Shown here: in pieces, positions 1 to 35,395 of the stretch
Numbering within the stretch: the first letter of the stretch is position 1
Layout: each line of letters starts with the position of its first letter
Source of the DNA: Candidatus Altiarchaeota archaeon
GTDB taxonomy: Archaea; Altiarchaeota; Altiarchaeia; IMC4; SCGC-AAA252-I15
Direction of reading: 5' to 3'
NCBI GenBank assembly: GCA_043800255.1
Contig: JAZDNF010000009.1
Coordinates: 192,001-256,000 of the forward strand
DNA: 64,000 nt
Notes under the pieces: generated by a model
The model's input: the letters and a program-made list of their open reading frames with translations, nothing else
What the model was told of the DNA's origin: nothing
Databases searched by the model: none
Program-made: the position numbers and the translations under genes

Positions 1-216
1 CTGGGAAGTCGAATTTGTAATCTGTTAGGCGCATAAGCTTTCCGAACATGCCATAGTATTTGCGGATGCGCATTTCCCCGATATTCTCGGAGGCTAGCAG
101 GTTGACGAACTCAGTTATTACGTCCTGTTTTTCTGGCTGATTTTTGGGTTTAGGTTGAACCGGTTCTTCTCATATCCTACCCCATATTTGCCCCGATATA
201 TTGAGTTAGCGTCCAT
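1..216 (-). pseudogene. N-terminus of a tyrosine recombinase/integrase-like gene, apparently frameshifted near 125-132; runs off the window edge
   Basis: ATG at 216 gives MDANSIYRGKYGVGYEKNRFNLNPKISQKNRT*. The -1 frame continues DVITEFVNLLASENIGEMRIRKYYGMFGKLMRLTDYKFDFP. Joined, this resembles the N-terminal domain of archaeal XerA-like integrases. No catalytic residues fall inside the window. Confidence 0.5.
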
Positions 217-430
217 TTTCCCTCAAACACCTGCAGGCATCATCCCAAGACAGCCCACAGCCCCTGATAAGCCGCCTGAACAACAATATATGCTCCGGGA
301 GGGCCTTCTCCAACAAAACCTCAAAATCCTCATCCACACAAACATACAGGAAGCCAAACCACTTGTCAGTATCGAACAACCCAGACGGCCCGAAATTAAG
401 CTCCCGGCTGCTAAACGCTAAACTAGCCAT
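206..430 (-). CDS. small hypothetical protein
   Basis: ORF MASLAFSSRELNFG...CLRENGR; its 3' end overlaps the ATG of the integrase-like gene. Confidence 0.35.
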   Translation of the reverse strand: MASLAFSSRELNFGPSGLFDTDKWFGFLYVCVDEDFEVLLEKALPEHILLFRRLIRGCGLSWDDACRCLRENGR

Positions 431-794
431 TATCCCACGTACACCACGTGAGGCACACAACTATAAAAACGACTAGGGTTCCGACAAGAAGAGTGAGATC
501 TTGATTTGTTTCCAGAGGAGTAGCTCGGCTTCAAATCCGATAGGGGATAATATCCATGGTTGCGACTTGTGGTATGGGCACGGGTATGTTATAGCCTATT
601 CTCTCTTTTCGTTGAGTAATACTAACCGAGAAGATAATTTATATGTCCCAGTACCATTTCTAGCTATATGGCCAAAAAAATAACCTTTTTAGCCAAAACA
701 AAAGTAAAGAAAAGAGTTTCTTTTAGGTCAGGTGGAAGAAAGATATCCTTTACTGCAAAATTGCCTTCTAGGAGGAGGAAAAGAGTTACATTTT

Positions 795-1391
795 ATGCAA
801 GATGATAAAATGACACTGAATGTTTATATAGACTCTGATGTTATGATCGCTTCAGAAATTAAAGATGAACAGAATCATGTAGAATCCAAAAAGTTTATGG
901 ATTATATTATAAAAAGTAGGGGGGAGGATATAAAATTTTTTACTTCCCAGTACACGTTCGTCGAGCTAGCTTCTGCAATGATTCGCAGAACAAAAAAATC
1001 GGATAAGGCATATTCACTACTATATCGTGTAAGAAACTCCTGGAAGAAATTTATTAATCCGTTACCACCCATGGAAAAAATGACCTCCTTCTCAAACTTA
1101 GTAGATAATCTCATAGAAACTGCGATTGGTTTTAAAACACCTGCAGGAGATACCATTCATGCCCATACCTTTGCTGAATATGAGATGGATTATCTTATAA
1201 CTTGGAATATAAAACACTTTGTTGGAATGAGAAGGAAAATAAAAAATATAAAACTTTTAACACCTACGAACGTCCTAAAAGAATTTGAGAAAATTCAGGA
1301 CGGGATACTTCCAAAAAAAGATAAGTATATCCTTAAGGAGACTCTAACAAGATTACTTGAGGAAAGGAATAAGTTAGTGCATCGTAAGTAA
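795..1391 (+). CDS. PIN-domain (VapC-like) protein
   Basis: Motifs VYIDSDV, TSQYTFVEL, GDTIH and LITWNIKHF give the acidic PIN pattern; start ATG 795 or 810. Confidence 0.75.
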   Translation: MQDDKMTLNVYIDSDVMIASEIKDEQNHVESKKFMDYIIKSRGEDIKFFTSQYTFVELASAMIRRTKKSDKAYSLLYRVRNSWKKFINPLPPMEKMTSFSNLVDNLIETAIGFKTPAGDTIHAHTFAEYEMDYLITWNIKHFVGMRRKIKNIKLLTPTNVLKEFEKIQDGILPKKDKYILKETLTRLLEERNKLVHRK

Positions 1392-1424
1392 TACTATAGG
1401 GTGTATACCCGGGGGGAACATTAG

Positions 1425-1919
1425 ATGATAAACTGGCAATACTATCCTAAGTCAGATGATATACCTGCAGCAGTAAAACGTGTTATCGACTGTTTTGAAA
1501 AGTCCAGAGAGAATATAGGGTCGCCAAAAAAGCACCTTCAAAGCAATGAAGTACTGGGCCACATACGAGACAATCTCATAGACATAGGGTTCAAGGTCGA
1601 AGGCCCGGAAAGGATAGTAGTACCTGTCCTCTTTGGCATGAACGGGAAGCTTGAGAAATCCTTCCAGGCAGACGCATACAACGAGAAAGACTCTATAGTC
1701 CTAGAGGTAGAGGCTGGGCGTGGCGTCCTTAACAACCAATTCCTTAAAGACCTCTTCCAGGCTTGCATGATGCACGATGTCAAATACCTGGCCGTAGCAG
1801 TGAGGAACAATTACAAGGGCAATAAGGACTTTGGGACAGTAATCGGTTTCTTTGACACACTCTACGCCAGTAGGAGGTTGACACTACCACTAAACGGGAT
1901 ATTAGTAATAGGGTACTAA
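1425..1919 (+). CDS. small restriction-endonuclease-like (PD-(D/E)xK-fold, E-x-E variant) protein
   Basis: FQADAY...VLEVEAGRG...FLKDL resembles BglII/BstYI-type active-site spacing; sits directly before vsr. Confidence 0.5.
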   Translation: MINWQYYPKSDDIPAAVKRVIDCFEKSRENIGSPKKHLQSNEVLGHIRDNLIDIGFKVEGPERIVVPVLFGMNGKLEKSFQADAYNEKDSIVLEVEAGRGVLNNQFLKDLFQACMMHDVKYLAVAVRNNYKGNKDFGTVIGFFDTLYASRRLTLPLNGILVIGY

Positions 1920-1961
1920 GCTGTAACACCACTCGATACAACAGTCCTTGGGGATGCTTAT

Positions 1962-2387
1962 ATGACGGCTAAGTTCACTAAACTATCGCCACCATCTAAG
2001 GCCACGACGAATGTCATGAAGGCCAACAGGCCGGAGGACACTCAACCTGAGCTTATCATGCGTCAGGCACTCCGTAAGGTCGGATTAGGTGGCTATCGGC
2101 TGCATTGGGACGTCCCTGGAAAGCCTGACATAGCCTACCCCGACAAGAAAATTGCTATCTTCGTCCACGGGTGCTTCTGGCATAGATGTCCCTACTGCAA
2201 GTACCCTATGCCAAAGACCAATAGGGCATACTGGGCATGGAAGTTCAGGAGGAACATAAAACGGGACAAGAGGAAGAAGGCCGAGCTTAAGAGATTAGGC
2301 TGGAGAGTATTGAATTTTTGGGAATGCAAGGTGAAGAAGAATACGGATAGATGTGTTGAGAGGGTGAGGGCTTCAATAATTAGATGA
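1962..2387 (+). CDS. vsr: very short patch repair endonuclease
   Basis: DTQPELIMR, PGKPDI, IFVHGCFWH and GWRVLNFWEC motifs; C5-MTase nearby. Confidence 0.93.
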   Translation: MTAKFTKLSPPSKATTNVMKANRPEDTQPELIMRQALRKVGLGGYRLHWDVPGKPDIAYPDKKIAIFVHGCFWHRCPYCKYPMPKTNRAYWAWKFRRNIKRDKRKKAELKRLGWRVLNFWECKVKKNTDRCVERVRASIIR

Positions 2388-2484
2388 CTCTAGGCCATAA
2401 ACGTACGTTTAATTACCACCCGGTCAGGGGGTTCTTTTAGTATATATTCCAGATATAACTATCGTATAGTTATGGGTGGTCATC

Positions 2485-3564
2485 ATGGTCAGCATTGAAG
2501 GTATTGAACCTGTAGAGCAACTTTTCCATAATGTTCGTATTAATGTTTATCCTAAAAAAGTTCGTTTTGAGGATATTAAGTTCTGGAAAGAGAACCTTAG
2601 GACACTTCTAGCTTTTGAACTGCTCGAAAAGGAGAGTAATAAGTCATTAGATGAGCTGACATTAAAAGAGATTACAGAATTTTTAGCTAAGAAAAGGGAA
2701 TTAGCGCTAGAGAAATTAGCTAAATCAATTGAAAGAAATGGAGTGCGTGTGCCGCTGATAATTCTACAAGATGGAACCTTGTTGGATGGGAACCGTAGGT
2801 ATTTTGCTTGTCAGCATTTACTACAAACAAGTGAGTCGAGACCATCTGCCTTAGATTCTATTCCCGTCTGGGTCATTAGAAACTCGGATATTGATGAACG
2901 AAAAAAACAGAAGATACTTGCGGAGGCAAACTTTTTACCAGAAGAGAAAGTCGAGTGGCCATTAGAGGTGAGAGCGAAAGTTATCTATGACTGTGTCACG
3001 TCATGTAAGCAGAGTGGAATGTCAAGGGAAGAGGTATACAAGGAGGTAACTGACCTGTATGGTGTTGATAAAGATACGGTGGACGCATATCTAGATGCAA
3101 TGAAGTTATCAAAGGAGTTCGTGAGGTCTGCGCCTCGAGCTAAAAGAGATTCATACCGAGAAATTGTTCAGGATAAGTTCGTGTATTTCTGGGAGTTCAG
3201 GAACAAGGCATTTACGAAGAAACTTAACTTGAACAAGAGAACGGAATTGCCTAAGGTTAAAAAGATATTTTATTCCATGGTGGCAAATGACCTTTTCAAA
3301 AACCTGAAGCAGGTAGAGCCGATGGCACGTGCCATTAGGGATAGGAGACAATGGGGGATATTACGTGATTCTAATGGTGCCAAGATAGACCAAGTAGAAG
3401 CGTTGTATAAGAGCGAAAAGGCCATTCGGTCTGCAGAAGACAAAATCAGAAACTTCAATAGCTGGTTGAATGAACTAAACACCAAGGCACTTTCTGAGGT
3501 TTCTATTACTCTGCTAAAGAAAACGATTGAAAAATGCCAGGGTATCTTAAAAAGAAGGGTATAA
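2485..3564 (+). CDS. ParB/Srx-like N-terminal domain protein with helical C-terminus
   Basis: LAKSIERNGVRVPLII...LLDGNRRY is the ParB/Srx signature; no adjacent parA. Confidence 0.75.
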   Translation: MVSIEGIEPVEQLFHNVRINVYPKKVRFEDIKFWKENLRTLLAFELLEKESNKSLDELTLKEITEFLAKKRELALEKLAKSIERNGVRVPLIILQDGTLLDGNRRYFACQHLLQTSESRPSALDSIPVWVIRNSDIDERKKQKILAEANFLPEEKVEWPLEVRAKVIYDCVTSCKQSGMSREEVYKEVTDLYGVDKDTVDAYLDAMKLSKEFVRSAPRAKRDSYREIVQDKFVYFWEFRNKAFTKKLNLNKRTELPKVKKIFYSMVANDLFKNLKQVEPMARAIRDRRQWGILRDSNGAKIDQVEALYKSEKAIRSAEDKIRNFNSWLNELNTKALSEVSITLLKKTIEKCQGILKRRV

Positions 3565-3567
3565 AGG

Positions 3568-4728
3568 ATGTCACCAAAAAGGATCCTAGTATTTGCTGGC
3601 ACGAAGTCTCAGACCGGCATTGCAACATTGAGGAGGTTCCCGGGTCTTGAACTTGAAGGAGTAAATGATTTTGATGATATTGCTAGGATGATAACAACAG
3701 AGCCAGCATTAGCAATATTGCCTCTTTGGAACTCCCATGAGGGGGAAATACCAAAGACAAACGTTTTGGATATGGTCTTTGAGAGAGACGTTAAGATCCA
3801 AGAGTTATGGTCTAAGGAGATAACGTTTGAGTTGATATGTAGGCCAGGAACGGCAGAGAAAAACATAAAAAAAGTCATCTCCGTTCGTGTTGCAAAAAGC
3901 CAATGTAGTGAATACCTTGCAGGCAAGGATTTTCAAGAGATGAAATCTACTGTAGAAGCATATAAAGAATTCGAAAAAAGCGAAAACTTTGATGCTGTTC
4001 TTTGCCCCCCAGACCTTTACGAACAAGGCAAGTTCATCCAATTGAGAAACGATGTTTCGAATCCTGCGAACTTCACTACCTTTGGGTTATTGGGTAATGT
4101 AAATTGGAAGCATTGGAGCGGCAAATCCTGGGCACCTTTACGAAGTTATGGGCTGCCTAAGTCATTTATACTCTCAGGGATTGAGATGTCAATCCCATCG
4201 CCTTCTGGACTTTCAGAGGATCAACAAGACTTATTTGACGATATGACCCTGGGAGTGAATCACTTAGATGAGATACCACGGATTATTTTTATTGCGAGAC
4301 GAGGGAGCAGTAGGTGCGGCTTGATATTAGAATCAAAAACGTATACTGACGTATTAATACCCTCTGGTGATAATGGCACTCTTACAGACATTCAAGTAAA
4401 AGAGGAGTTAGGCGAAACAAAAGATTCTTATGTCGGTAACATACTCAATTTTATGGAGGGTAAATTCCCGAACCTTCTAAAGCATGATTTCATTAAGCAT
4501 TTAGGCCACAACACTTGCCTATTTGCATGCCCAACCTTAAATGTTATAACCCATGGTTTTGAGGAAAACCTAACGGAGATGATAGTAAGGAGGACAATTA
4601 ATAAATATTTTGAATTAATAGACAACGGTGTGCCTTGTTCGGATGCTCAGAGGAGACTATTCGAGAAGTATAAACAGAATTACTACGATAAAGGTTTGGG
4701 CTTTATTAATTTCATCAAGGCATGCTAA
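3568..4728 (+). CDS. divergent prephenate dehydratase-fold protein with unknown C-terminal region
   Basis: PLWNSHEG (PDT PIENSxEG), KVISVRVAKSQC (SHPQALAQC), STVEA (STAxA) and NFTTF (NxTRF) occur in the right order and spacing; about 200 extra C-terminal residues. Confidence 0.65.
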   Translation: MSPKRILVFAGTKSQTGIATLRRFPGLELEGVNDFDDIARMITTEPALAILPLWNSHEGEIPKTNVLDMVFERDVKIQELWSKEITFELICRPGTAEKNIKKVISVRVAKSQCSEYLAGKDFQEMKSTVEAYKEFEKSENFDAVLCPPDLYEQGKFIQLRNDVSNPANFTTFGLLGNVNWKHWSGKSWAPLRSYGLPKSFILSGIEMSIPSPSGLSEDQQDLFDDMTLGVNHLDEIPRIIFIARRGSSRCGLILESKTYTDVLIPSGDNGTLTDIQVKEELGETKDSYVGNILNFMEGKFPNLLKHDFIKHLGHNTCLFACPTLNVITHGFEENLTEMIVRRTINKYFELIDNGVPCSDAQRRLFEKYKQNYYDKGLGFINFIKAC

Positions 4729-4766
4729 TGTTGTAAGTAAATCCGATGATCTTTTTATCGTTATGC

Positions 4767-5873
4767 TTACATGGAGTGGAGTATACTCTTCCCTATAGCA
4801 TTTGCCAATTTTACCGGGACAGCATTGCCTATTTGTTTGTATTTTTGGGTCAGGCTTCCCTTAAAAACCCATCCTGGGGGGAATCCTTGAACTAGCGCGC
4901 ATTCTCGGTAGGTAAGTGGGCGGGGCTTGTCGGGGTGACAGAGGTTTGTGGCTCGCCCTGAAGGTGTGGTCAGGATTGTTGGGGATGGCTTGTCCCAGGA
5001 TAGCCTGCGGCAGAAGCCGACCTTCCCGCCAGTTGCGTGCCAGCCCTTGCCCATGACCTTTTTTTGCAGCCTGACAGGCAACGCTTTCCAGTTTTCCCCT
5101 GGGCCGACGAGCCCTTTAGAGAATATCTCATGCCGAGTGTCATCATAAGGCAAGTAGTCCACATGTTCCCTTTCACGTAATCCTCGTAAACGCCTTATTG
5201 CTTTCTTAAGTGGCAGATGGTTGTTGTAGTATCTTGCCTTTGGCTTGGCTAGGTCATAGCCCTTCTTGGCCCCTACGATGAAGACACGTTTTCTTAATTG
5301 CGGCGCCCCATAGTCAGCAGCGTTCAACTCCCACATGTGTATCCGGTAGCTGTCCTTCCCTTTATTGCTGAGCGTAAGGTTGAACTCAGCCATGATGGCA
5401 TCCCATGCAGAGCCGAGGCGTTCGTCTTCTGAAAGCCCAGCGCCTTGAGTCCGACGTTTTTCGAGTGGCCTGTGCTTTTTCGCGGCGGATAATATGCCCC
5501 TCACGTTCTCAAAGATGAAGAACTCAGGCCTAATGCCCCAGACTATGTCCAAAAAGTTCTTGAACAACAGGCCCTCCTCGGAAGAGATTGACTGCCTCCG
5601 CCCGACAGTGCTGAATGGCTGGCAAGGGGGACCGCCAGAGACTACTGCGACTTGGCCTTTTTCCAGGCCAGCGATCGTAAGTATCTCCTTGACATTGACG
5701 CCTCTTATATCCTTATTGAGGATACAGTCCCGGAGGCCAGGCCTATTGGCAATGATTGTCTGTACAGCAGTCGGATCCTTCTCGACGCACGCCCGAACAT
5801 TGAAGCCGGCCTGTTCAAGCCCAAGGTCAAGGCCAAAAGCACCTGTAAACAGCGAGACTACCGTTGGTTCCAT
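4767..5873 (-). CDS. dcm: DNA (cytosine-5) methyltransferase
   Basis: Motif I SLFTGAFG, IV GGPPCQPFS, VI ENVRG, VIII PQLRKRVF, X QIGNAVP. Confidence 0.95.
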   Translation of the reverse strand: MEPTVVSLFTGAFGLDLGLEQAGFNVRACVEKDPTAVQTIIANRPGLRDCILNKDIRGVNVKEILTIAGLEKGQVAVVSGGPPCQPFSTVGRRQSISSEEGLLFKNFLDIVWGIRPEFFIFENVRGILSAAKKHRPLEKRRTQGAGLSEDERLGSAWDAIMAEFNLTLSNKGKDSYRIHMWELNAADYGAPQLRKRVFIVGAKKGYDLAKPKARYYNNHLPLKKAIRRLRGLREREHVDYLPYDDTRHEIFSKGLVGPGENWKALPVRLQKKVMGKGWHATGGKVGFCRRLSWDKPSPTILTTPSGRATNLCHPDKPRPLTYRECALVQGFPPGWVFKGSLTQKYKQIGNAVPVKLANAIGKSILHSM

Positions 5874-6037
5874 CAAAGCCACTTATTGAATGTTGAATAA
5901 TCAGCCAACTCATAACTAATTAGGTTATGGGTTATTTATACATATTAGGTCGGAGCTTTGATCTTATCACGTATTCTACGGCTCAATCTGTTTTGGGTTC
6001 GTAATCGACAAGTGGTTTGGCGTCTATATCCTTGTTT

Positions 6038-6556
6038 ATGAAGAAGGTTACTGGTGTTGGGTATGGGCGAGTTGATTTTGATAAGGTGGTGCATGCAAAA
6101 CGGGGTTTAAGCGAGGGGTACATTGATATCCTCTTGAGGAATGGCTATAGACAGATTCGGGATCCTGGGTTTTCTCAGGGTATGGGAACCGCTTATTATA
6201 TCATGAATTTGACTGATGAATCGGACGAGCATTTCATGTTATGTAACCTCCTGCTTGATGAAATCCGGAGGTATACTCCCAGGGCGGAGTATGCTCTTAC
6301 TATGTTGCCGGACATTACCTTCGGCTTGGATGATGGTCGCTGGGTGGCTGTGGAAATCGAAGACAAGCGGAAGAGCGAGGAAGAGCTAGCACCCAAGCTG
6401 ACTAAGATGAGCAACTATAACGATTTCTTCTATGTGGTCACGGACTGGGAGCTTCTGGAGCATTACAGGGAATACGGGCCAACCTTCACCAGAAGGTCTG
6501 TCCGGGACAAAATACGCTCATATTTTCGAGGCGAATCCCAGGCCCTAAATGAGTGA
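6038..6556 (+). CDS. PD-(D/E)xK-fold nuclease-like protein of the element
   Basis: ESDEH...LPDITF...VAVEIEDK motif. Confidence 0.5.
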   Translation: MKKVTGVGYGRVDFDKVVHAKRGLSEGYIDILLRNGYRQIRDPGFSQGMGTAYYIMNLTDESDEHFMLCNLLLDEIRRYTPRAEYALTMLPDITFGLDDGRWVAVEIEDKRKSEEELAPKLTKMSNYNDFFYVVTDWELLEHYREYGPTFTRRSVRDKIRSYFRGESQALNE

Positions 6557-6843
6557 TTAGGGAGTAAATCAAGCTCATTTTCAAACAAAAGCCAACCAAC
6601 GAGTAGATTCTATTCCCTAGAGCTACTCCAACTGCTTTATCAGCTAAACAAGAAGCAAAGCAAAGACTTCCCTGGAGGTATATGTCTACCCCTATCTGGC
6701 GGAGAGTCTATTCCCTACCAGGCTGTTTACTCGAAAACTGGTTCAGTGTCAAAAATACTGGGGCCCCGAAAATCAATAAGTTTTTAAGCTTATGTTCACA
6801 TGTTATACTACTTAATTATGTTAAGTATAAGAGGTGGTTATAA

Positions 6844-7062
6844 ATGAGTAACAAAAACTTGGAAAAAATAAGGGAGGTAGTCAGAACGGAGTGCAATGAG
6901 GAGGGATGCACTATTGGAGAGTTGGCACAAAGGGCAGGCGTTTCACGAAACACTGCACGAGCATATTCGGAAAGGCTGATCGGGGAAGGATACGTAAAAG
7001 TGAGGGAAGTAGGCCCAGCGAAGTTACTTAAATATAATCCCCACTCTGAGAGGGAAAGATAG
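6844..7062 (+). CDS. small winged-HTH DNA-binding protein
   Basis: TIGELAQRAGVSRNTARAY helix-turn-helix and wing VREVGPAKL; GAGGTG RBS upstream. Confidence 0.8.
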   Translation: MSNKNLEKIREVVRTECNEEGCTIGELAQRAGVSRNTARAYSERLIGEGYVKVREVGPAKLLKYNPHSERER

Positions 7063-7063
7063 A

Positions 7064-7216
7064 ATGGACGAGAAAAAAATCGAGCAACTATTTGATGCCG
7101 TATGCGGGAAAAAAAGAGATAGATGCACCTGTAAATTAGTAGGTGAAACAGGACAGGTTGACTTGATACCCATCGAGAGCACCAAGATAGTATGTGAGAG
7201 GATAATCTTCCCTTGA
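7064..7216 (+). CDS. 50-aa Cys-containing hypothetical protein (not in the ORF track)
   Basis: MDEKKIEQLFDAVCGKKRDRCTCKLVGETGQVDLIPIESTKIVCERIIFP; starts 1 nt after the HTH stop. Confidence 0.35.
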   Translation: MDEKKIEQLFDAVCGKKRDRCTCKLVGETGQVDLIPIESTKIVCERIIFP

Positions 7217-7509
7217 TGTTAAATTTCTCCGAGGCTTTGAAGCCTTAGACAGCGCGACATCAGGCCGCCACTCTTGTTCCCGTTGTACATTTGTTTGTTC
7301 TGGTGCAACCTAGCCTTTTGGTAGGGGGATCGGCTTTCAGGACATACCATCAAGCCCTAGATATAGCCCAGATATACTGTTGGCCCCCGTTCTTGGTTGT
7401 CTGTTGGTGGTTTCGATCGGGGCGATTACATAGTGATTGTTCAGTATTTTGAGCTTTTAGAGCGTATAATTCGTGCTGTCTAAACCTCTTGGGGGATTTG
7501 AACACTTTG

Positions 7510-7935
7510 TTAGCGTTTTTTGATGAATTCCTGCGGGGTTAATATCCGTATGCCTTTGTGTTCTTTGAGTTTTAACAGGTGCTGGTCGCCTGTGATTATA
7601 TAGTCTGCTTTTGCTTCGATCGCGCATTCAAGTATTCTGTTGTCTGCTGGATCCTCTCGGATTACTTCAAGTTTATGTCGTGGAGTAATCTTGACTGATA
7701 GCTCTTCGACTAATGCGATGAATCTTTTTCGTTCTGGTTCAGGGACCCTATCAGCTATCTTCTTGCGACATGTAACTCTTGTATATTCCCCTAGGATATC
7801 ATCCGATATATAGTTGATGATAATCCCTTCCGCAACGTTTTTAAGGATTCCTGATAGTTCACTACTTGGGTTGATTAGTGTTGATATAAGGATATTCGTG
7901 TCAAGTACGACCCTAATGGCCTTTGCGATAGGCAT
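7510..7935 (-). CDS. PIN-family toxin (VapC-like)
   Basis: VVLDTNILIS and DPADNRILECA..ADYIITGDQHLL. Confidence 0.9.
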   Translation of the reverse strand: MPIAKAIRVVLDTNILISTLINPSSELSGILKNVAEGIIINYISDDILGEYTRVTCRKKIADRVPEPERKRFIALVEELSVKITPRHKLEVIREDPADNRILECAIEAKADYIITGDQHLLKLKEHKGIRILTPQEFIKKR

Positions 7936-8188
7936 TTATCTCCTCCTCTATCTCCTTAGATGTTAGGCCTCCTGTTCTCCGTAATATCCTTTGTCGTATC
8001 CCAAGTAACTCGGATACCACCTTCTGTCTGTCGACCTTCTTTAGGATTATTGTCTCATCATCCACCGCGCCGACCATGAATAATGCGTCCTTTCCGACCT
8101 TCAGCCTATCTCTGATGGTTTGGGGGATGACTATCTGACCCCGGGTGGACATCTTGGCAGGCTCTACAGTGATATTCCCATAAGCCAT
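7913..8188 (-). CDS. AbrB/MazE/SpoVT-family antitoxin
   Basis: KMSTRGQIVIPQTIRDRL; overlaps and precedes the PIN toxin. Confidence 0.88.
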   Translation of the reverse strand: MAYGNITVEPAKMSTRGQIVIPQTIRDRLKVGKDALFMVGAVDDETIILKKVDRQKVVSELLGIRQRILRRTGGLTSKEIEEEINAYRKGH

Positions 8189-28777: not shown

Positions 28778-30328
28778 CTATGCCGTCCGCCTGCGCTCGT
28801 AGGATGTGAATCTTGCCTTGGATGACAGTTCGTATTCTTTTTGTGCCGCCTTCCAGCTCTGCCGGTCGGATGCTGGTTTCGGCTTGTCCTTTGAGAGGCT
28901 CACGGTGTCGTATCTCCTTTGGAGGATGGTCTTAAGCTGCTCGTAGCCTTCTCGTATGTTCTCAAAGCCTTCGGCCTGCTGGATGCCCCAGGGCCTGAAG
29001 TTCTTCTCAAGGATGAGAGAGTCGAATTTTCCGGCCAGTTCAGAATGGCCGTGAGCTCCTGCGACGACGCCTCTCCTTGCGATGTCTATGATGTCTGCGG
29101 GAGTCAGCTTTATGTCAGCAGCTCTTGACGAGTATCTGGCGTACTCATGTTCTGATATCCTGCCGATATACTCTCTGAACTTCTTTTTGTCGCCGCTCAG
29201 CTCGAAACCTATCTTATCAGCAACCACTTCGTCCAGCACGGCCCAGACGCTGTCGACCGCCTGCCTCGCGTCGAAGCGCCCTGGACTCGGATAGGCGAAC
29301 ATCCTCTGCAGGTCTGTCGGGACGTCATTGATGGTGACGTCATCATAGCCTGCAAGATAGGGATGCTTCCCGAACTTCCCTTCCATCTTCTGTATCAGCC
29401 CGTAAGTGCTCACAACATGCGCCATCTCATGCGCGAATATCTCCTTAGGATACTGTGCCATGAACTGCGGCTGAACCTGCGTCAGCAGGCTCACATAGAG
29501 CGCTGGTTTCCCAGTCTCCGACATGAAATATAAGCCAGCCGACTCTTGGGGGTTGAACGATAGCTTCACCTGGGCTATCCTGAACTCCTCCCCTGTGATG
29601 CCCTTCATCTTTTTTTCTATTGGCGTCATGCTTTCCCTGATGCCTGACAGCAGGCTGCCAAGAAGCCGATCGTCGTAGCCGTTTACCTGCGCAGCAGTCC
29701 ACGCGTTCTCCAACTCAGGACTCCACTGTCCGCCAACGGCTTTCCTGAAATCGAAACCGCCCTTAGGCTGCCGGACAATTGATGTGACGTCCAATTCAGG
29801 GGCTTTGACGACTGATAACATCATTGGCCTGCCCTTTTCGCGGTCCGCGAAAAACCTTATCCCGTTGCCGTCCTTCCGGTAGAGAGTGAAACACCGGCCT
29901 GACCTGAAGTTGGGGCTTGAGTTGTCAGGCTCTATTATGTCGAAATCTGCTCTCGCGTCAGAGTACTCGCTTCTCAGCTTTTCTCTCAGCTTCGGATTAT
30001 GTTCTGTGACCTTGTCGACGATGCGCCATATCTCGCCAACGGAAGCCTCAGGCCTCTGAGCATGCTCCAGTTTGGCAGGTATCTCCATCACAGGCGGCGT
30101 CAGATCCCCGACCTCCTTTTTGAGCGTGAAATGGGAGTGAACTGCCATGGCGGCCAGCATGCCGAGGCTGAATATCCCAGCCCCGATCTCAGCCCGGTTG
30201 GTTTTGATAAAATCCCCGATGGACCTTCCCACACCCCCATAACCCTTCATGTATCTTTCAACGGCTTTCGGGTCGTTCCAATCGATTTTTGTGGAATCCG
30301 GTCTCTTGAGTCTCTCCTTCTGGCTCAT
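28778..30328 (-). CDS. orphan TM-anchored protein with HExxH zincin motif
   Basis: Hydrophobic segment near residues 48-65; FAHEMAH and a downstream LDEVVAD. Confidence 0.6.
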   Translation of the reverse strand: MSQKERLKRPDSTKIDWNDPKAVERYMKGYGGVGRSIGDFIKTNRAEIGAGIFSLGMLAAMAVHSHFTLKKEVGDLTPPVMEIPAKLEHAQRPEASVGEIWRIVDKVTEHNPKLREKLRSEYSDARADFDIIEPDNSSPNFRSGRCFTLYRKDGNGIRFFADREKGRPMMLSVVKAPELDVTSIVRQPKGGFDFRKAVGGQWSPELENAWTAAQVNGYDDRLLGSLLSGIRESMTPIEKKMKGITGEEFRIAQVKLSFNPQESAGLYFMSETGKPALYVSLLTQVQPQFMAQYPKEIFAHEMAHVVSTYGLIQKMEGKFGKHPYLAGYDDVTINDVPTDLQRMFAYPSPGRFDARQAVDSVWAVLDEVVADKIGFELSGDKKKFREYIGRISEHEYARYSSRAADIKLTPADIIDIARRGVVAGAHGHSELAGKFDSLILEKNFRPWGIQQAEGFENIREGYEQLKTILQRRYDTVSLSKDKPKPASDRQSWKAAQKEYELSSKARFTSYERRRTA

Positions 30329-30393: not shown

Positions 30394-30783
30394 ATGAACC
30401 ATAGAGAGATAATTAATAGGGAACCGGCCAACGATGGCCTGCCCGGCCCAAAGCAGACGCTGACCTACGGGCAGCTGAAGAAACTCCCGCCGCAGGAAAT
30501 CCAGGATAGGATAGACGAGCAGGTGGTTAAGATAGGCACCGACGGCGCAGGATACATTGGAAACCGGCTCGCACCCCCTCTCGCATTATTAGTTCTGAAA
30601 AGGTTACACCACGATGATTTTGACAAGCTGGGAGGGGGAATCCGAAGAGAGGAGAGGGAGAAGTACGAAAGCAAACCTGAAACTTACTGGAGAGTAAAAG
30701 GTACTGAAGAAATCGAAGAACACATTCATGGCTGGGTCAAAGACAAGCTTAAGATAACCGACGAGACCGTGGTCTCACTCTGA
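30394..30783 (+). CDS. hypothetical protein
   Basis: 129-aa ORF filling the gap between genes, TATA-like sequence upstream. Confidence 0.55.
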   Translation: MNHREIINREPANDGLPGPKQTLTYGQLKKLPPQEIQDRIDEQVVKIGTDGAGYIGNRLAPPLALLVLKRLHHDDFDKLGGGIRREEREKYESKPETYWRVKGTEEIEEHIHGWVKDKLKITDETVVSL

Positions 30784-32268: not shown

Positions 32269-32310
32269 GACTAATAGTATATAATTTCTGACTCCTTAAA
32301 TTAAGTACCC

Positions 32311-33525
32311 ATGAACGTGGAAAAGCAGAATGACAAGAGGCCGGAGGCTAACATACCGCTGAGGCAGGTAAGCAAGGACAAGAAATTGATAAGGTACATG
32401 TCAGCAGATGCTTTTTTCGCGCCGGAGAGCTCCTTCAAAGCCGGGGAATACTGTGTTGACAACTGCGTAATGGTCGCCCCCTACGCCAAAATCAGGGGAG
32501 GCATCGTGGATATCGGAGACTACAGCAACATACAGGACCACGTCATCGTCGGCTCGGACAGCACAGAGACTGCTGTGATAGGGAAGAACGTCTCGCTTGC
32601 ACATCAGGCCAAGATCCTAGGAACGCACATACACATAGGAGACGGGACGCTCATAGACATGAAGGCCGAACTCGACGAGGCAACGGTCGGCAACAATTGC
32701 GTCATAGAGCCGGGGGCGGTTCTCAGGGGAGTATACATCGAGGACGGGATGTACGTGAAAGCCAAGACCAATATTGACGGCGACATGGGTCTCAGAGATG
32801 CTATCAGGAAAGGACTGGCAGGGTTCATCAGAGACGAGCCAGACTACCCCTACAAGAACCTGAACGCGCGCGTAGTCCACGTCAACAAGGAACTGGCGAG
32901 AGGATACAACAGACTGAAAGAGGAGGGAGCTGACCTCTCGACGCCCGTGCTCCAGAACCCTAAAGTAGGATGGACCACGCACAGGGTGAGCATGCCAGTG
33001 GCGAAGGCGGTCGCTGAACGTGGAGTGAAGATAATAGGGCCTGCCATGCTGGAAGGCGATGTCGAGTTCGGAGAAGGCTCTGTCATCAGGGTTGACGAGG
33101 GAGGGATAGAGGAGGGCACGCCCATATCGATAGGAGACGGGACTGTAACAGGCAGGAACTTTGTGGCTCATGCGCTGGAGACAAGCAAAAAAGGCAATCT
33201 TATCGAGAAGAACACAGTCGAAGTGGGCGGCAGGAGATACTCCATATTCATCGGCGAGGACGTTACAATGAGGGATGACGTCCAAATCCATGGGCCGGCC
33301 GCCGTCTTATACGGATGCGAGTTAGGGCATAACGTCCTCATCTTCAAAGGCTTCCTGGAGGAGGGCGTCAGAGTCGGCAGGGACTCATTGATCATGGCAA
33401 GGGTCGGAAAGAACAGCGTCATAGGTGATGACGTTTTTGTCGGAGTTGATGTCCCCCTCGCCACCAAAATACCTTCAGGAGCCAGGATAAGAACAGTTAA
33501 GGACTTGGAAAAACTCAGAGGCTGA
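32311..33525 (+). CDS. tandem (two-domain) gamma-class carbonic anhydrase-like LbH protein
   Basis: Hexapeptide repeats; Cam motifs SNIQD, SLAHQ and VNKELARGY in domain 1; IRVDEG, HALET and IHGPAAV in domain 2. Confidence 0.85.
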   Translation: MNVEKQNDKRPEANIPLRQVSKDKKLIRYMSADAFFAPESSFKAGEYCVDNCVMVAPYAKIRGGIVDIGDYSNIQDHVIVGSDSTETAVIGKNVSLAHQAKILGTHIHIGDGTLIDMKAELDEATVGNNCVIEPGAVLRGVYIEDGMYVKAKTNIDGDMGLRDAIRKGLAGFIRDEPDYPYKNLNARVVHVNKELARGYNRLKEEGADLSTPVLQNPKVGWTTHRVSMPVAKAVAERGVKIIGPAMLEGDVEFGEGSVIRVDEGGIEEGTPISIGDGTVTGRNFVAHALETSKKGNLIEKNTVEVGGRRYSIFIGEDVTMRDDVQIHGPAAVLYGCELGHNVLIFKGFLEEGVRVGRDSLIMARVGKNSVIGDDVFVGVDVPLATKIPSGARIRTVKDLEKLRG

Positions 33526-34675
33526 GCTTCTTGTCGCACATGGGCGTCAGCGTCCTGACAAGCTCGTCCGCCTCCTTCTTCTCCGTTGCGAGTATGACGC
33601 CTCCCATGTTGTCAAGCCTCATCTTGTTTATCATGAAATGTATGAACTCCTTGACCGATTTGTCGTTGTTGTATATCAGAAGGCTTGACACGGAATCCAG
33701 GAGCACGAACTTCGGCGGCGGCATCCTCACCAGGACCTTGTCGGCGTACATGCCTATCTCCTCCAGGGACGAGGGATTCTCGACGAAGACCGTGTTCCCC
33801 TCCTTGGATGCTGACTTGCCTGCCATGTGGGATATGCAGTCGATGAAGACGATATTGTCAGTGGGGATGCCGTTGTTTTTCATGATCTTCGATATCTGCT
33901 CGAACGGGCTGCTCAGGCTGATGTAGATTCCGTTCTCCTTCCGGTCAACCAGCAGTATCTTGAGCAGCGCAGGTATTACCGTGCTCATATCATCCGACTT
34001 CGAGGACACGAGGACTATGGACTCGTTGGGTAGGCCGCTGAAGCCGGCTGAGACGTTCTCATACATCATCTGAGCCGACTCAGTTACGGTTGCCTCGCCC
34101 TCAACCGGAGCTCCGACAGACTGTTCAGCGCCGGTTTTCGTCATCTCGGTCCTCAAGCTCTCAACCGTCTGGATGAACTTTGTCACATCCGAAGTCAGGG
34201 GAGTGGATATCTTGATGGGGCTCTTGTCCCTGAGGGTTATCTTGAGCACTCCCTTGGTGGACTGTATGAACTTAAGGAGGTTCTGCAAGCCGTAGCCGAC
34301 CACGACCAGGATGGCTAAAAGCACTATCTCGTCAAAGGGCGGGCTGGGAAGCTCAGGCAGGTAGTTTCCTGCGAAATTCTTCAGTATGTCCACGAGGACG
34401 GTCTTGCCTGCAAGAGGCGACAGCGTGTAAAGGTAGCCGGCAATGGCTATGAATATCACCCCCCGTATGAAACGGTTCCAGTTGTAGGGAGTGTAATGTC
34501 CGAGAGAGAATATGTCAGAGTATCTGACCTCCGAGAACGATTTGGGAAACTTTTTCAGGCAGATGAGCCTCTTGTTTGTCGCGGCGATGTCATAGCCGCT
34601 GAATGAGAACTCAGATATGATGCGCTCCCCCTTTGACAGGAAATCGCTCCACTTTCCCTTTGCGTTTCCGTTCAT
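33515..34675 (-). CDS. membrane protein with C-terminal inactive KaiC/RecA-like domain
   Basis: Two TM segments; GIYISL, FIDCIS, NPSSL and LDSVSSLLIYN, but no Walker A. Confidence 0.75.
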   Translation of the reverse strand: MNGNAKGKWSDFLSKGERIISEFSFSGYDIAATNKRLICLKKFPKSFSEVRYSDIFSLGHYTPYNWNRFIRGVIFIAIAGYLYTLSPLAGKTVLVDILKNFAGNYLPELPSPPFDEIVLLAILVVVGYGLQNLLKFIQSTKGVLKITLRDKSPIKISTPLTSDVTKFIQTVESLRTEMTKTGAEQSVGAPVEGEATVTESAQMMYENVSAGFSGLPNESIVLVSSKSDDMSTVIPALLKILLVDRKENGIYISLSSPFEQISKIMKNNGIPTDNIVFIDCISHMAGKSASKEGNTVFVENPSSLEEIGMYADKVLVRMPPPKFVLLDSVSSLLIYNNDKSVKEFIHFMINKMRLDNMGGVILATEKKEADELVRTLTPMCDKKLSL

Positions 34676-34681
34676 CTTTAC

Positions 34682-35395
34682 CTATTCCACCCCGGCCTTA
34701 AAGAAAGGTATGAGGTTTATCCCATCAGAGGTTATCTTCATGATGTGCTTGTTCCTCGAATGGTTGAGGCCTCTCATCTTGATGACCTGGAACGACCTTA
34801 TCAGGTCTCCCTTGCGCTCGAACTCCGAGAGGAAGAAGAGGCCGTCGGCGATGAACTCCTCAACCCCGAACACGGAGTACATGAACTTCTGGGGGGGTAT
34901 CTCCGAGATGATGAATATCGTGCAATCCAGGAGGGATAGCCTAATCCCGAGCTCGAAGATGAAGTCCCTTATCTTCTTGTCGTCTTTGATGGCCTGCGCG
35001 ATTGACGTGATAGAGTCCAACACCACCCTCTTCGAGGAGGTCTCCTCTACCATGGAGCATATCATCGTTATTATGCCGTTGACGTTCTGGAGCTCCAGGC
35101 CCTTCAGCCGTGAGTCCTCGTTTATGTCCAGAACCCGTATCTTGTTGGTGTCGACGAACTTCGGCTCATAGAACTTGAAGCCGCTGATGTTCTTGAGGAA
35201 CTTTTCCTTGGACTCTGAAAGCGAGATGTAGAGGCCGTTCTCGTTCTTCTTCGCACCCCTGAACAGGAATTCGGTGCCCAGTATCGTCTTCCCGGTCCCG
35301 CTGCTGCCGGAGATCATGACGATATGGCCGCGAGGGATTCCGCCCCCGAGAATAGCGTCCAGACCCTGTATGCCAGTTTCAACAAAATCAGCCAT
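34682..35395 (-). CDS. single-domain KaiC-like (RAD55) ATPase
   Basis: ETGIQGLD, GSSGTGKT, VVLDS and IKMRG. Confidence 0.9.
   Translation of the reverse strand: MADFVETGIQGLDAILGGGIPRGHIVMISGSSGTGKTILGTEFLFRGAKKNENGLYISLSESKEKFLKNISGFKFYEPKFVDTNKIRVLDINEDSRLKGLELQNVNGIITMICSMVEETSSKRVVLDSITSIAQAIKDDKKIRDFIFELGIRLSLLDCTIFIISEIPPQKFMYSVFGVEEFIADGLFFLSEFERKGDLIRSFQVIKMRGLNHSRNKHIMKITSDGINLIPFFKAGVE

Follow-up and report, generated by a model that had tools for sequence, protein, structure and literature searches.

Cam, the gamma-class carbonic anhydrase (gamma-CA) of Methanosarcina thermophila (PDB 1thj, 1qrg), is a homotrimer of left-handed beta-helices with three identical sites, in which His81 and His122 of one monomer and His117 of its neighbour bind the metal, Asn73, Gln75 and Asn202 make up a hydrogen-bond network, and Glu62 and Glu84 serve proton transfer (PMC4519908, in the part available to us). 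In Arabidopsis complex I, three polypeptides (gamma-CA1, gamma-CA2 and CAL2) form a closed trimer anchored to the complex, CA1 and CA2 are each largely complete, and the full histidine set occurs at one interface only, the other sites being dead; the single competent site combines H130, N99, Q101, D102 and Y207 of gamma-CA1 with H107, H135 and R86 of gamma-CA2 (PMC8290278, available likewise in part). In that site, the Asn/Gln/Asp residues and the C-terminal helix residue therefore go with the His117-type ligand, and the arginine goes with the ligands of the His81 and His122 type. That a heteromeric gamma-CA can have a single competent site is thus already known from plants, and here we report a gene of Candidatus Altiarchaeota archaeon in which a comparable division of residues falls between two domains of one chain. 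The window is a stretch of 64,000 nucleotides (assembly GCA_043800255.1, contig JAZDNF010000009.1, positions 192,001 to 256,000), and the gene is an intact open reading frame (ORF) at 32311..33525 on the + strand with an ATG start, encoding 404 amino acids (aa) and two Cam-type gamma-CA domains.

We find it likely on balance that this protein is a self-contained, single-chain Cam-type gamma-CA with one composite site at its intramolecular interface and no third subunit, cytoplasmic in this host. The two left-handed beta-helix domains would pack side by side like two neighbours of the Cam trimer. Domain 2 would give the flat face, with the ligands H287 and H327, the pair R260/D262 and the proton-transfer glutamates E263 and E290, and domain 1 would give the edge, which carries H98 as third ligand, the hydrogen-bond network of N73, Q75 and D76, and the N192 helix. 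Each chain would thereby hold one complete metal site, while the other two would-be sites would be dead and their surfaces polar, so that no third subunit would be needed. The reaction would presumably be CO2/bicarbonate interconversion for metabolism.

Division of the Cam site residues between two domains

Hexapeptide repeats are detected by Pfam (Hexapep, E 1.7e-15), and the best NCBIfam model is NF040597, the Cam-type carbonic anhydrase equivalog (E 7.1e-47, 160 bits over three stretches). When the whole protein was compared with PDB chains by phmmer, Cam 1thj_A was matched at E 1.7e-26, and the best match was 9lin, named dGCA1. Upon closer examination, residues 93-201 correspond to Cam 112-211 (1qrf_A, stretch E 2.5e-12), which is the second half and C-terminal helix of Cam, and residues 212-332 correspond to Cam 10-127 (stretch E 2e-12), which is its N-terminal extension and first half. 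Judged by these scores, the similarity to Cam lies far beyond chance. A hexapeptide acyltransferase of the LpxA/LpxD/GlmU type was considered and rejected, as the NCBIfam scores fall far under the cut-offs (e.g. LpxD, 43.8 vs 207 bits). By fold comparison with VIA-align, domain 1 reaches Z 16.5 to CcmM (3kwc_A, 180 aligned residues) and 14.9 to Cam (1qq0_A, 165 aligned), where we used Z and aligned length since the column of root-mean-square deviations (~11-12 A) looks unreliable, and domain 2 is barely covered. The beta-helix fold of domain 2 is assigned on the basis of its match to Cam 10-127 (E 2e-12), and Foldseek against the PDB returned beta-solenoid noise only (best TM 0.17-0.24).

We call B-type those domains that have the NxQD motif, His117 and the Asn202 helix and have no His81 or His122, and A-type those that have the RxDE motif, His81 and His122 and have neither His117 nor the helix. 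By residue scoring with a profile hidden Markov model (HMM) of the Cam domain, and by the domain tree described below, the query belongs to a two-domain, split-site architecture with one B-type and one A-type domain per chain. Its features are as follows.

32311..33525 (stop codon included), + strand: whole gene of the two-domain Cam-type gamma-CA homologue (ORF list; PDB, Pfam and NCBIfam matches)
32389..32778, + strand: left-handed beta-helix core of domain 1, approximately residues 27-156, His117 face, B-type (strands 27-156 of the AlphaFold2 (AF2) model; VIA-align; Cam HMM span 30-200)
32527..32538, + strand: N73-I-Q75-D76, equivalent to Cam Asn73/Gln75/Asp76 (Q and D invariant in 21/21 homologues)
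32602..32604, + strand: codon of H98, equivalent to Cam His117 and proposed third metal ligand (His in 21/21 homologues and 78/79 loci; predicted contact with H287 and H327)
32872..32922, + strand: C-terminal helix of domain 1, residues 188-204, with H190-V-N192, equivalent to Cam Tyr200/Asn202 (AF2 helices 188-191 and 197-204; N192 invariant)
32929..33006, + strand: linker and Cam-like N-terminal extension of domain 2, residues 207-232, including W221, equivalent to Cam Trp19 (alignment to Cam 9-37)
33004..33522, + strand: left-handed beta-helix of domain 2, residues 232-404, His81/His122 face, A-type, without the Asn202 helix (Cam match, AF2, HMM)
33088..33099, + strand: R260-V-D262-E263, equivalent to Cam Arg59/Asp61/Glu62, followed by a 5-residue insertion found in only 2/21 rows (alignments)
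33169..33180, + strand: H287-A-L-E290, with the equivalents of Cam His81 and Glu84, followed by a Cam-like long loop (alignments)
33289..33291, + strand: codon of H327, equivalent to Cam His122 (alignments, 79 loci, predicted complex)

When aligned to 1qrf_A, domain 2 has H287 at the position of His81, E290 at Glu84, D322 at His117 and H327 at His122, and domain 1 has H98 (in SLAHQ) at His117 and L103 at His122. Thus, domain 1 retains the His117 side only (N73, Q75, D76, H98, H190/N192), and domain 2 retains the His81/His122 side only (W221, R260, D262, E263, H287, E290, H327). The ligand set of three histidines, to which one beta-helix contributes two and its neighbour the third, is complete only when the two different domains are taken together, and the equivalents of the Cam catalytic residues are likewise distributed, with E263 and E290 in domain 2 and N73, Q75 and N192 in domain 1. 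Since neither domain has a full ligand set, three equivalent sites, as in a Cam-type homotrimer, appear impossible from the sequence. This split was proposed in an initial annotation of the DNA, whose thirteen residue numbers (N73, Q75, D76, G81, H98, L103, R260, D262, E263, H287, E290, D322 and H327) are all correct in the protein's own numbering, with H98 lying within SLAHQ and the VNKELARGY helix motif starting at residue 191, and whose division of the Cam ligands into His81/His122 and the neighbour's His117 agrees with the available part of PMC4519908. As aligned, the distribution of residues between domains 1 and 2 matches exactly the face assignment published for Cam and complex I, as far as those two sources are available.

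Compared with Cam, the protein has equivalents of His81, His117, His122, Arg59, Asp61, Glu62, Glu84, Asn73, Gln75, Asp76, Asn202, Trp19 and the loop after Glu84, and each domain matches it at a stretch E of ~1e-12. It differs in that two fused, non-identical domains, with at most one site per chain, take the place of a homotrimer with three identical sites, and in that domain 2 is without the Asn202 helix, no signal peptide is seen and the NCBIfam score is under its cut-off. With the plant complex I proteins it shares a full histidine set at one interface, to which one partner brings the His117-type ligand, the N/Q/D residues and a C-terminal residue and the other brings two histidines and the arginine; it differs from them in having two fused domains, strictly reciprocal loss and, apparently, no third member.

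Conservation and origin of the two domain types

A word-index search for homologues returned mostly single-domain Cams, the only full-length match being the query itself, alongside one two-domain protein of 439 aa. An exhaustive HMMER search of 1.84 billion representatives yielded 332 proteins at E <= 0.001, 52 at E <= 1e-10 and 4 at E <= 1e-30. The Cam-domain HMM was built from eight single-domain matches, and every domain was scored at eleven Cam positions. We found 23 two-domain relatives in the query order (B then A), including the giant ORF of another genome (G039), and three in the reverse order (P0010, P0013 and P0036). The A-type domain regularly stops short of the Asn202 helix, which the B-type domain retains (HMM coverage).

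Next, 21 B-A proteins were aligned with MAFFT (22-33% identity to the query, mean column identity 16%); P0158, P0027, P0010, P0013 and P0036 are family members outside this alignment. Seven columns are invariant across the 21 rows, namely Q75, D76, H98, N192, G243, H287 and H327, six of which are site residues, and R260 (20/21), D262 (20/21) and E263 (19/21) are nearly so. The column of W221 is aromatic in 16/21 homologues. At the lost positions of domain 1, His is absent from the His81 column (0/21) and present once in the His122 column (1/21), and at those of domain 2, there is one His in the His117 column (1/21) and no Gln in the Gln75 column (0/21). In six A-type domains, hmmalign misplaced the His122 column, for which the MAFFT alignment has His in 21/21.

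A scan of one genome per species with an alignment of a closer subclade gave 112 relatives, from which 79 loci were kept, belonging to Rubrobacter, Solirubrobacter, Thermoleophilia, Chloroflexota, Deinococcus, Burkholderiales and many cyanobacteria. Here too, the retained residues are nearly universal, with His at the equivalents of H98 (78/79), H287 (79/79) and H327 (78/79) and Asn at that of N192 (79/79), while the His81 and His122 positions of domain 1 never hold His (0/79) and the His117 position of domain 2 holds it in 4/79. Random loss among homologues, which the initial annotation had named as the pattern that would speak against its proposal, is not what we observe, and loss is strictly reciprocal both in the 21-row alignment and across the 79 loci. 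The Glu84 equivalent is Lys in 59 of the loci and Glu in 12, and the query is more Cam-like than the bacterial subclade because it keeps E290 and the long Cam-like loop. An assembly or fusion artefact was ruled out by the occurrence of the same architecture in >100 independent sequences. Within the phylum, the module was found in only one genome (G039) among 60 others, and the gene is patchy in the archaeal lineage of the query. We also observed that the bacterial subclade occurs mainly in taxa that tolerate desiccation or radiation or live in soil crusts (Rubrobacter, Deinococcus, Chroococcidiopsis, Scytonema, Microcoleus and Thermomicrobiales), and that one metagenome-assembled genome of Thermomicrobiales carries two adjacent two-domain paralogues with overlapping ORF calls (L099, 1624-4712, + strand).

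A maximum-likelihood tree was computed from 71 domains, comprising 26 A-type, 26 B-type, 10 single-domain and 9 from three triple-domain proteins, with one 19-column fragment dropped. All 26 A-type domains form one split, with a Shimodaira-Hasegawa-like approximate likelihood ratio test (SH-aLRT) value of 99, and all 26 B-type domains form another (SH-aLRT 89), the two domains of the query falling inside their respective groups. The domains of the swapped-order proteins P0010 (439 aa), P0013 (368 aa) and P0036 (402 aa) also group with their respective types, and the A and B sub-clades mirror one another. The splits, which include the swapped-order proteins, and the mirrored sub-clades therefore fit a single ancient duplication whose copies subfunctionalised, then diverged together and occasionally changed their order in the chain. 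At the level of sequence, the alignments and the tree together show the complementary pattern, its conservation and a single origin of each domain type. Duplication with reciprocal degeneration, as first proposed from the single sequence, is borne out to the extent that the complementary residues make up the family's invariant columns and each domain type lies on one side of a branch.

Predicted interface and the question of a third subunit

The AF2 monomer, predicted from the 21-row alignment, has a mean predicted local distance difference test (pLDDT) value of 70.5 and a predicted template modelling score (pTM) of 0.77, and the ESM Atlas has a model of its own with pTM 0.86, on which a 352-aa Planctomycetota cluster superposes over residues 35-392. 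Both models depict a compact monomer. We then divided the protein into residues 1-206 and 207-404 and predicted the complex of these two chains together with a riding Zn ion, in three runs and with 3 controls. The complex score was 0.79 (runs 0.79, 0.87 and 0.76), the best control reached 0.06, the runs share at least 41% of contacts and the partner pLDDT is at least 80. Among the contacts of lowest predicted error are 98-287, 98-327, 98-285, 98-325, 76-285 and 76-258. On domain 1, the predicted interface comprises an edge formed by residues 37-39, 56-58, 76-77, 98-99, 117-118, 134-135 and 150-152 together with the helix residues 191-203, so that the helix with the Asn202 equivalent, which is confined to the B-type domain, would be part of it; on domain 2 it comprises the flat face (256-263, 283-287, 323-327, 341-345 and onwards), and residues 207-219 also lie inside it. 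Of two possible Cam-like packings, the model picked the one that completes the site, and the contact of the three histidines is predicted as the initial annotation had expected, with H98 touching both H287 and H327. The single composite site between domains 1 and 2 is thus backed by conservation, by the tree and by the predicted interface. We also rejected an arrangement in which domain 1 and domain 2 each form a trimer of their own and the two trimers stack, as it yields no complete site, yet both complementary halves are kept invariant.

From the sequence pattern alone, pairing within a chain cannot be distinguished from pairing between chains, and a swapped dimer or a chain of molecules, in which domain 1 meets domain 2 of another molecule, would use the same residues; the existence of the opposite domain order (P0010, P0013, P0036) also leaves room for it. 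In the predicted complex, however, residues 205-206 contact 207 and 209-210, which places the two ends side by side, so that one chain could form the domain pair, and the monomer models are compact (pTM values as above). We regard composite sites between chains as very unlikely.

To compare used and unused surfaces, the columns of the predicted interface were mapped onto the opposite domain and onto the family. We observed that, at the columns where Cam has hydrophobic contact residues, the used surfaces retain them and the unused surfaces have other residues instead, as set out here for three columns.

F345 column: single-domain Cams, F in 10/10; used A-type surface, F in 21/25 aligned; unused B-type surface, D7, E4, Q3 and I3
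L343 column: single-domain Cams, L or F; used A-type surface, V, I, F or L; unused B-type surface, R6, E5, V5 and K3
M117 column: single-domain Cams, M9 and F1; used B-type surface, F17 and M4; unused A-type surface, D12 and E6

Overall, the unused A-type edge is 42% charged and 21% hydrophobic, against 10-15% charged and 40-48% hydrophobic for the used edges. Similar results were obtained for the 79 loci, in which the F345 equivalent is F in 76/77 and its domain-1 counterpart is N, R, T or E, the L343 equivalent is I or V in 76/77 vs 78% charged on the unused surface, the M117 equivalent is F in 77/78 vs D in 70/77, and the A151 equivalent is 94% hydrophobic vs 71% charged.

These surfaces bear on the possibility that the two-domain unit occupies two of the three positions of a trimer, the last of which has to be filled by a third beta-helix subunit or another partner. 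All gamma-CAs matched in the PDB are described as trimers or in trimeric assemblies, namely Cam, CcmM and the complex I gamma-CA (PMC4519908 and PMC8290278, each in its available part), some unused positions of the domain-1 face are still hydrophobic in the bacterial homologues, and single-chain proteins with three gamma-CA domains do exist among the relatives (P0011, 824 aa; P0012, 828 aa; P0015, 819 aa; P0077, 826 aa). Of these, P0011 and P0012 retain almost every scored Cam residue in each of their three domains, the third domain of P0012 being unaligned over the C-terminal helix, and would be single-chain pseudo-trimers with three sites. The three domains are degenerate in P0015 and CamH-like in P0077. 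P0011 and P0012 resemble the query in having tandem Cam-type domains in one chain; they differ from it in having three domains with nearly all scored residues kept, and they group in the tree with single-domain Cams, not with the A and B types.

Against such a partner stand the charged residues at the key hydrophobic contact columns of both unused surfaces and the gene content of the host, whose archaeal genome of 1.75 Mb is 93% complete and in which no second gamma-CA-like gene was found; its other hexapeptide or beta-helix genes look like acetyltransferases by sequence. No second beta-helix ORF was found within ~4 kb in 60 of the 63 readable homologue loci, this survey covering 63/79 loci because ORF calling missed the central gene in 16 high-GC loci, and no conserved neighbour of the homologues was found, the commonest neighbour cluster occurring in 11/79 loci. 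The module is also built into other large proteins. It lies N-terminal to a chemoreceptor (4HB_MCP, HAMP, MCPsignal) in P0130 (1084 aa) and P0158 (1288 aa), of which P0130 retains the composite site and P0158 is without two ligands, and these fusions may be CO2/bicarbonate sensors. It is likewise found inside the FG-GAP proteins P0160 and P0072 and, again as B then A, at approximately aa 484-846 of the giant ORF of G039, a relative from the same taxonomic order as the host (L019, G039:C76:195-4232), an open frame of 2020 aa, 1346 aa of which lie within the locus with both ends open, and whose remainder is charged and helical-looking. Fusion into chemoreceptors, FG-GAP proteins and a giant ORF is hard to reconcile with a dedicated third subunit.

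We therefore consider a third partner decidedly unlikely, and hold with moderate confidence that the domain pair is self-contained. Taken as a whole, the initial interpretation is supported for duplication, reciprocal degeneration and the composite site (conservation, tree and predicted contacts); its suggestion that the third position had been freed for a partner is not, given the charged unused surfaces, the lack of another gamma-CA-like gene or a conserved neighbour, and the use of the cassette within large proteins. Beta-helix pairs without a third member are familiar from dynactin p25/p27 and eIF2B gamma/epsilon, whose entries are fold matches only in the VIA-align search.

Function, genomic setting and place in the family

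Several points weigh against a self-contained, catalytic monomer. The AF2 monomer is only moderate, with pLDDT < 50 at residues 157-182, 264-269 and 291-300. The 0.79 mark of the complex prediction was reached by 116/157 solved complexes and 2/215 mismatched pairs in a calibration that excluded riding ligands and user-supplied alignments, and the pass is the model's own confidence, which may be memory of the solved Cam trimer in the PDB. The groups of the tree were defined by position and pattern, and shared gaps, as in the A-type domains without the helix, can pull the A group together. On domain 1, the equivalents of K60 and I79 are 80-86% hydrophobic in the bacterial subclade, so that the argument from polarity is carried mainly by two positions on each surface. 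Finally, the 160 bits do not reach the curated NF040597 cut-off of 380 bits, and many proteins of the gamma-CA family are without demonstrated carbonic anhydrase activity (PMC4519908, in its available part).

The last two points, together with the fusion to chemotaxis receptors, the missing pair of ligands in P0158 and the Lys at the Glu84 equivalent in 59/79 bacterial loci, would also be expected if the site bound metal or bicarbonate/CO2 without working as a carbonic anhydrase, as a sensor, a scaffold or another hydrolase. However, every Cam residue with a reported role in catalysis (the three histidines, E62, E84, N73, Q75, N202 and W19) has a counterpart in the protein, which also retains the Cam-like loop after E290, and we consider a non-carbonic-anhydrase role unlikely. 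For the single-chain enzyme, we infer catalysis, the monomeric state and the physiological role.

Within the host, the 93%-complete genome yielded no carbonic anhydrase of the beta class (PF00484) or the alpha class (PF00194), and the 404-aa protein is therefore its only carbonic anhydrase candidate; McrA was not found in the same genome. No hydrophobic N-terminus or signal peptide is visible upon reading the host protein sequence, by which it would be cytoplasmic; several homologues, read by eye, begin with a lipoprotein-like or signal-like sequence.

The gene is flanked upstream by a divergent O-phosphoseryl-tRNA synthetase (SepRS) gene and downstream by two convergent KaiC-like genes, and it looks monocistronic. 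The intergenic region shared with the SepRS gene (32269-32310) is 42 bp only and contains A/T-rich, TATA-like boxes facing both directions, one of which precedes the gene:

32278..32285, + strand: TATA-like box, ~30 nt before the ATG (read off the sequence)

Its position suggests a leaderless or near-leaderless transcript, and the SepRS and carbonic anhydrase transcripts are probably both leaderless. The annotated start is plausible because of the 42-bp divergent spacer with this box ~30 nt ahead. On the other side (33515-35395, - strand) lie a KaiC-like ATPase gene (237 aa) and then the gene for a 386-aa protein with a weak KaiC/DUF7504 domain at its C-terminus and a hydrophobic N-terminal half, the 3' end of which has an 11-base convergent overlap with the stop region of the carbonic anhydrase gene. 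Elsewhere in the window, positions 1-8000 have a GC content of 41-46% vs 50-54% in the remainder and may be foreign or RNA-gene DNA, and two ORFs, of 516 aa (28778-30328, - strand) and 129 aa (30394-30783, + strand), match no Pfam family at E <= 0.001.

In the full-text literature on tandem, duplicated, two-domain or monomeric gamma-CAs, we found no description of the split-site architecture, and the available part of a 2026 survey (PMC13098186, its supplements aside) has no mention of tandem, fused, multidomain or two-domain forms and uses "duplicated" for gene copy number. In source annotations, members of the family appear as "hypothetical protein", as generic carbonic anhydrase/acetyltransferase or as N-acyltransferase. 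Current annotation thus overlooks split-site proteins, which score under the NCBIfam cut-off, although the family is common in the bacteria named above (112 relatives in one scan, 79 loci kept).

We put forward, tentatively and as somewhat short of an even chance, that this is the first gamma-CA free of the obligate trimer, in which a pair of beta-helices acts as an autonomous, one-site catalytic or CO2/bicarbonate-binding cassette that is widespread in desiccation-tolerant bacteria and cyanobacteria and has been recruited as the input module of chemoreceptors and giant surface proteins. It would be a clean natural case of duplication followed by complementary loss within an active site shared between subunits, by which an obligate homotrimer became a one-chain, one-site enzyme. 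Such a protein would be the smallest self-sufficient gamma-CA unit, useful in engineering and as a way to learn why enzymes with a beta-helix fold form trimers.

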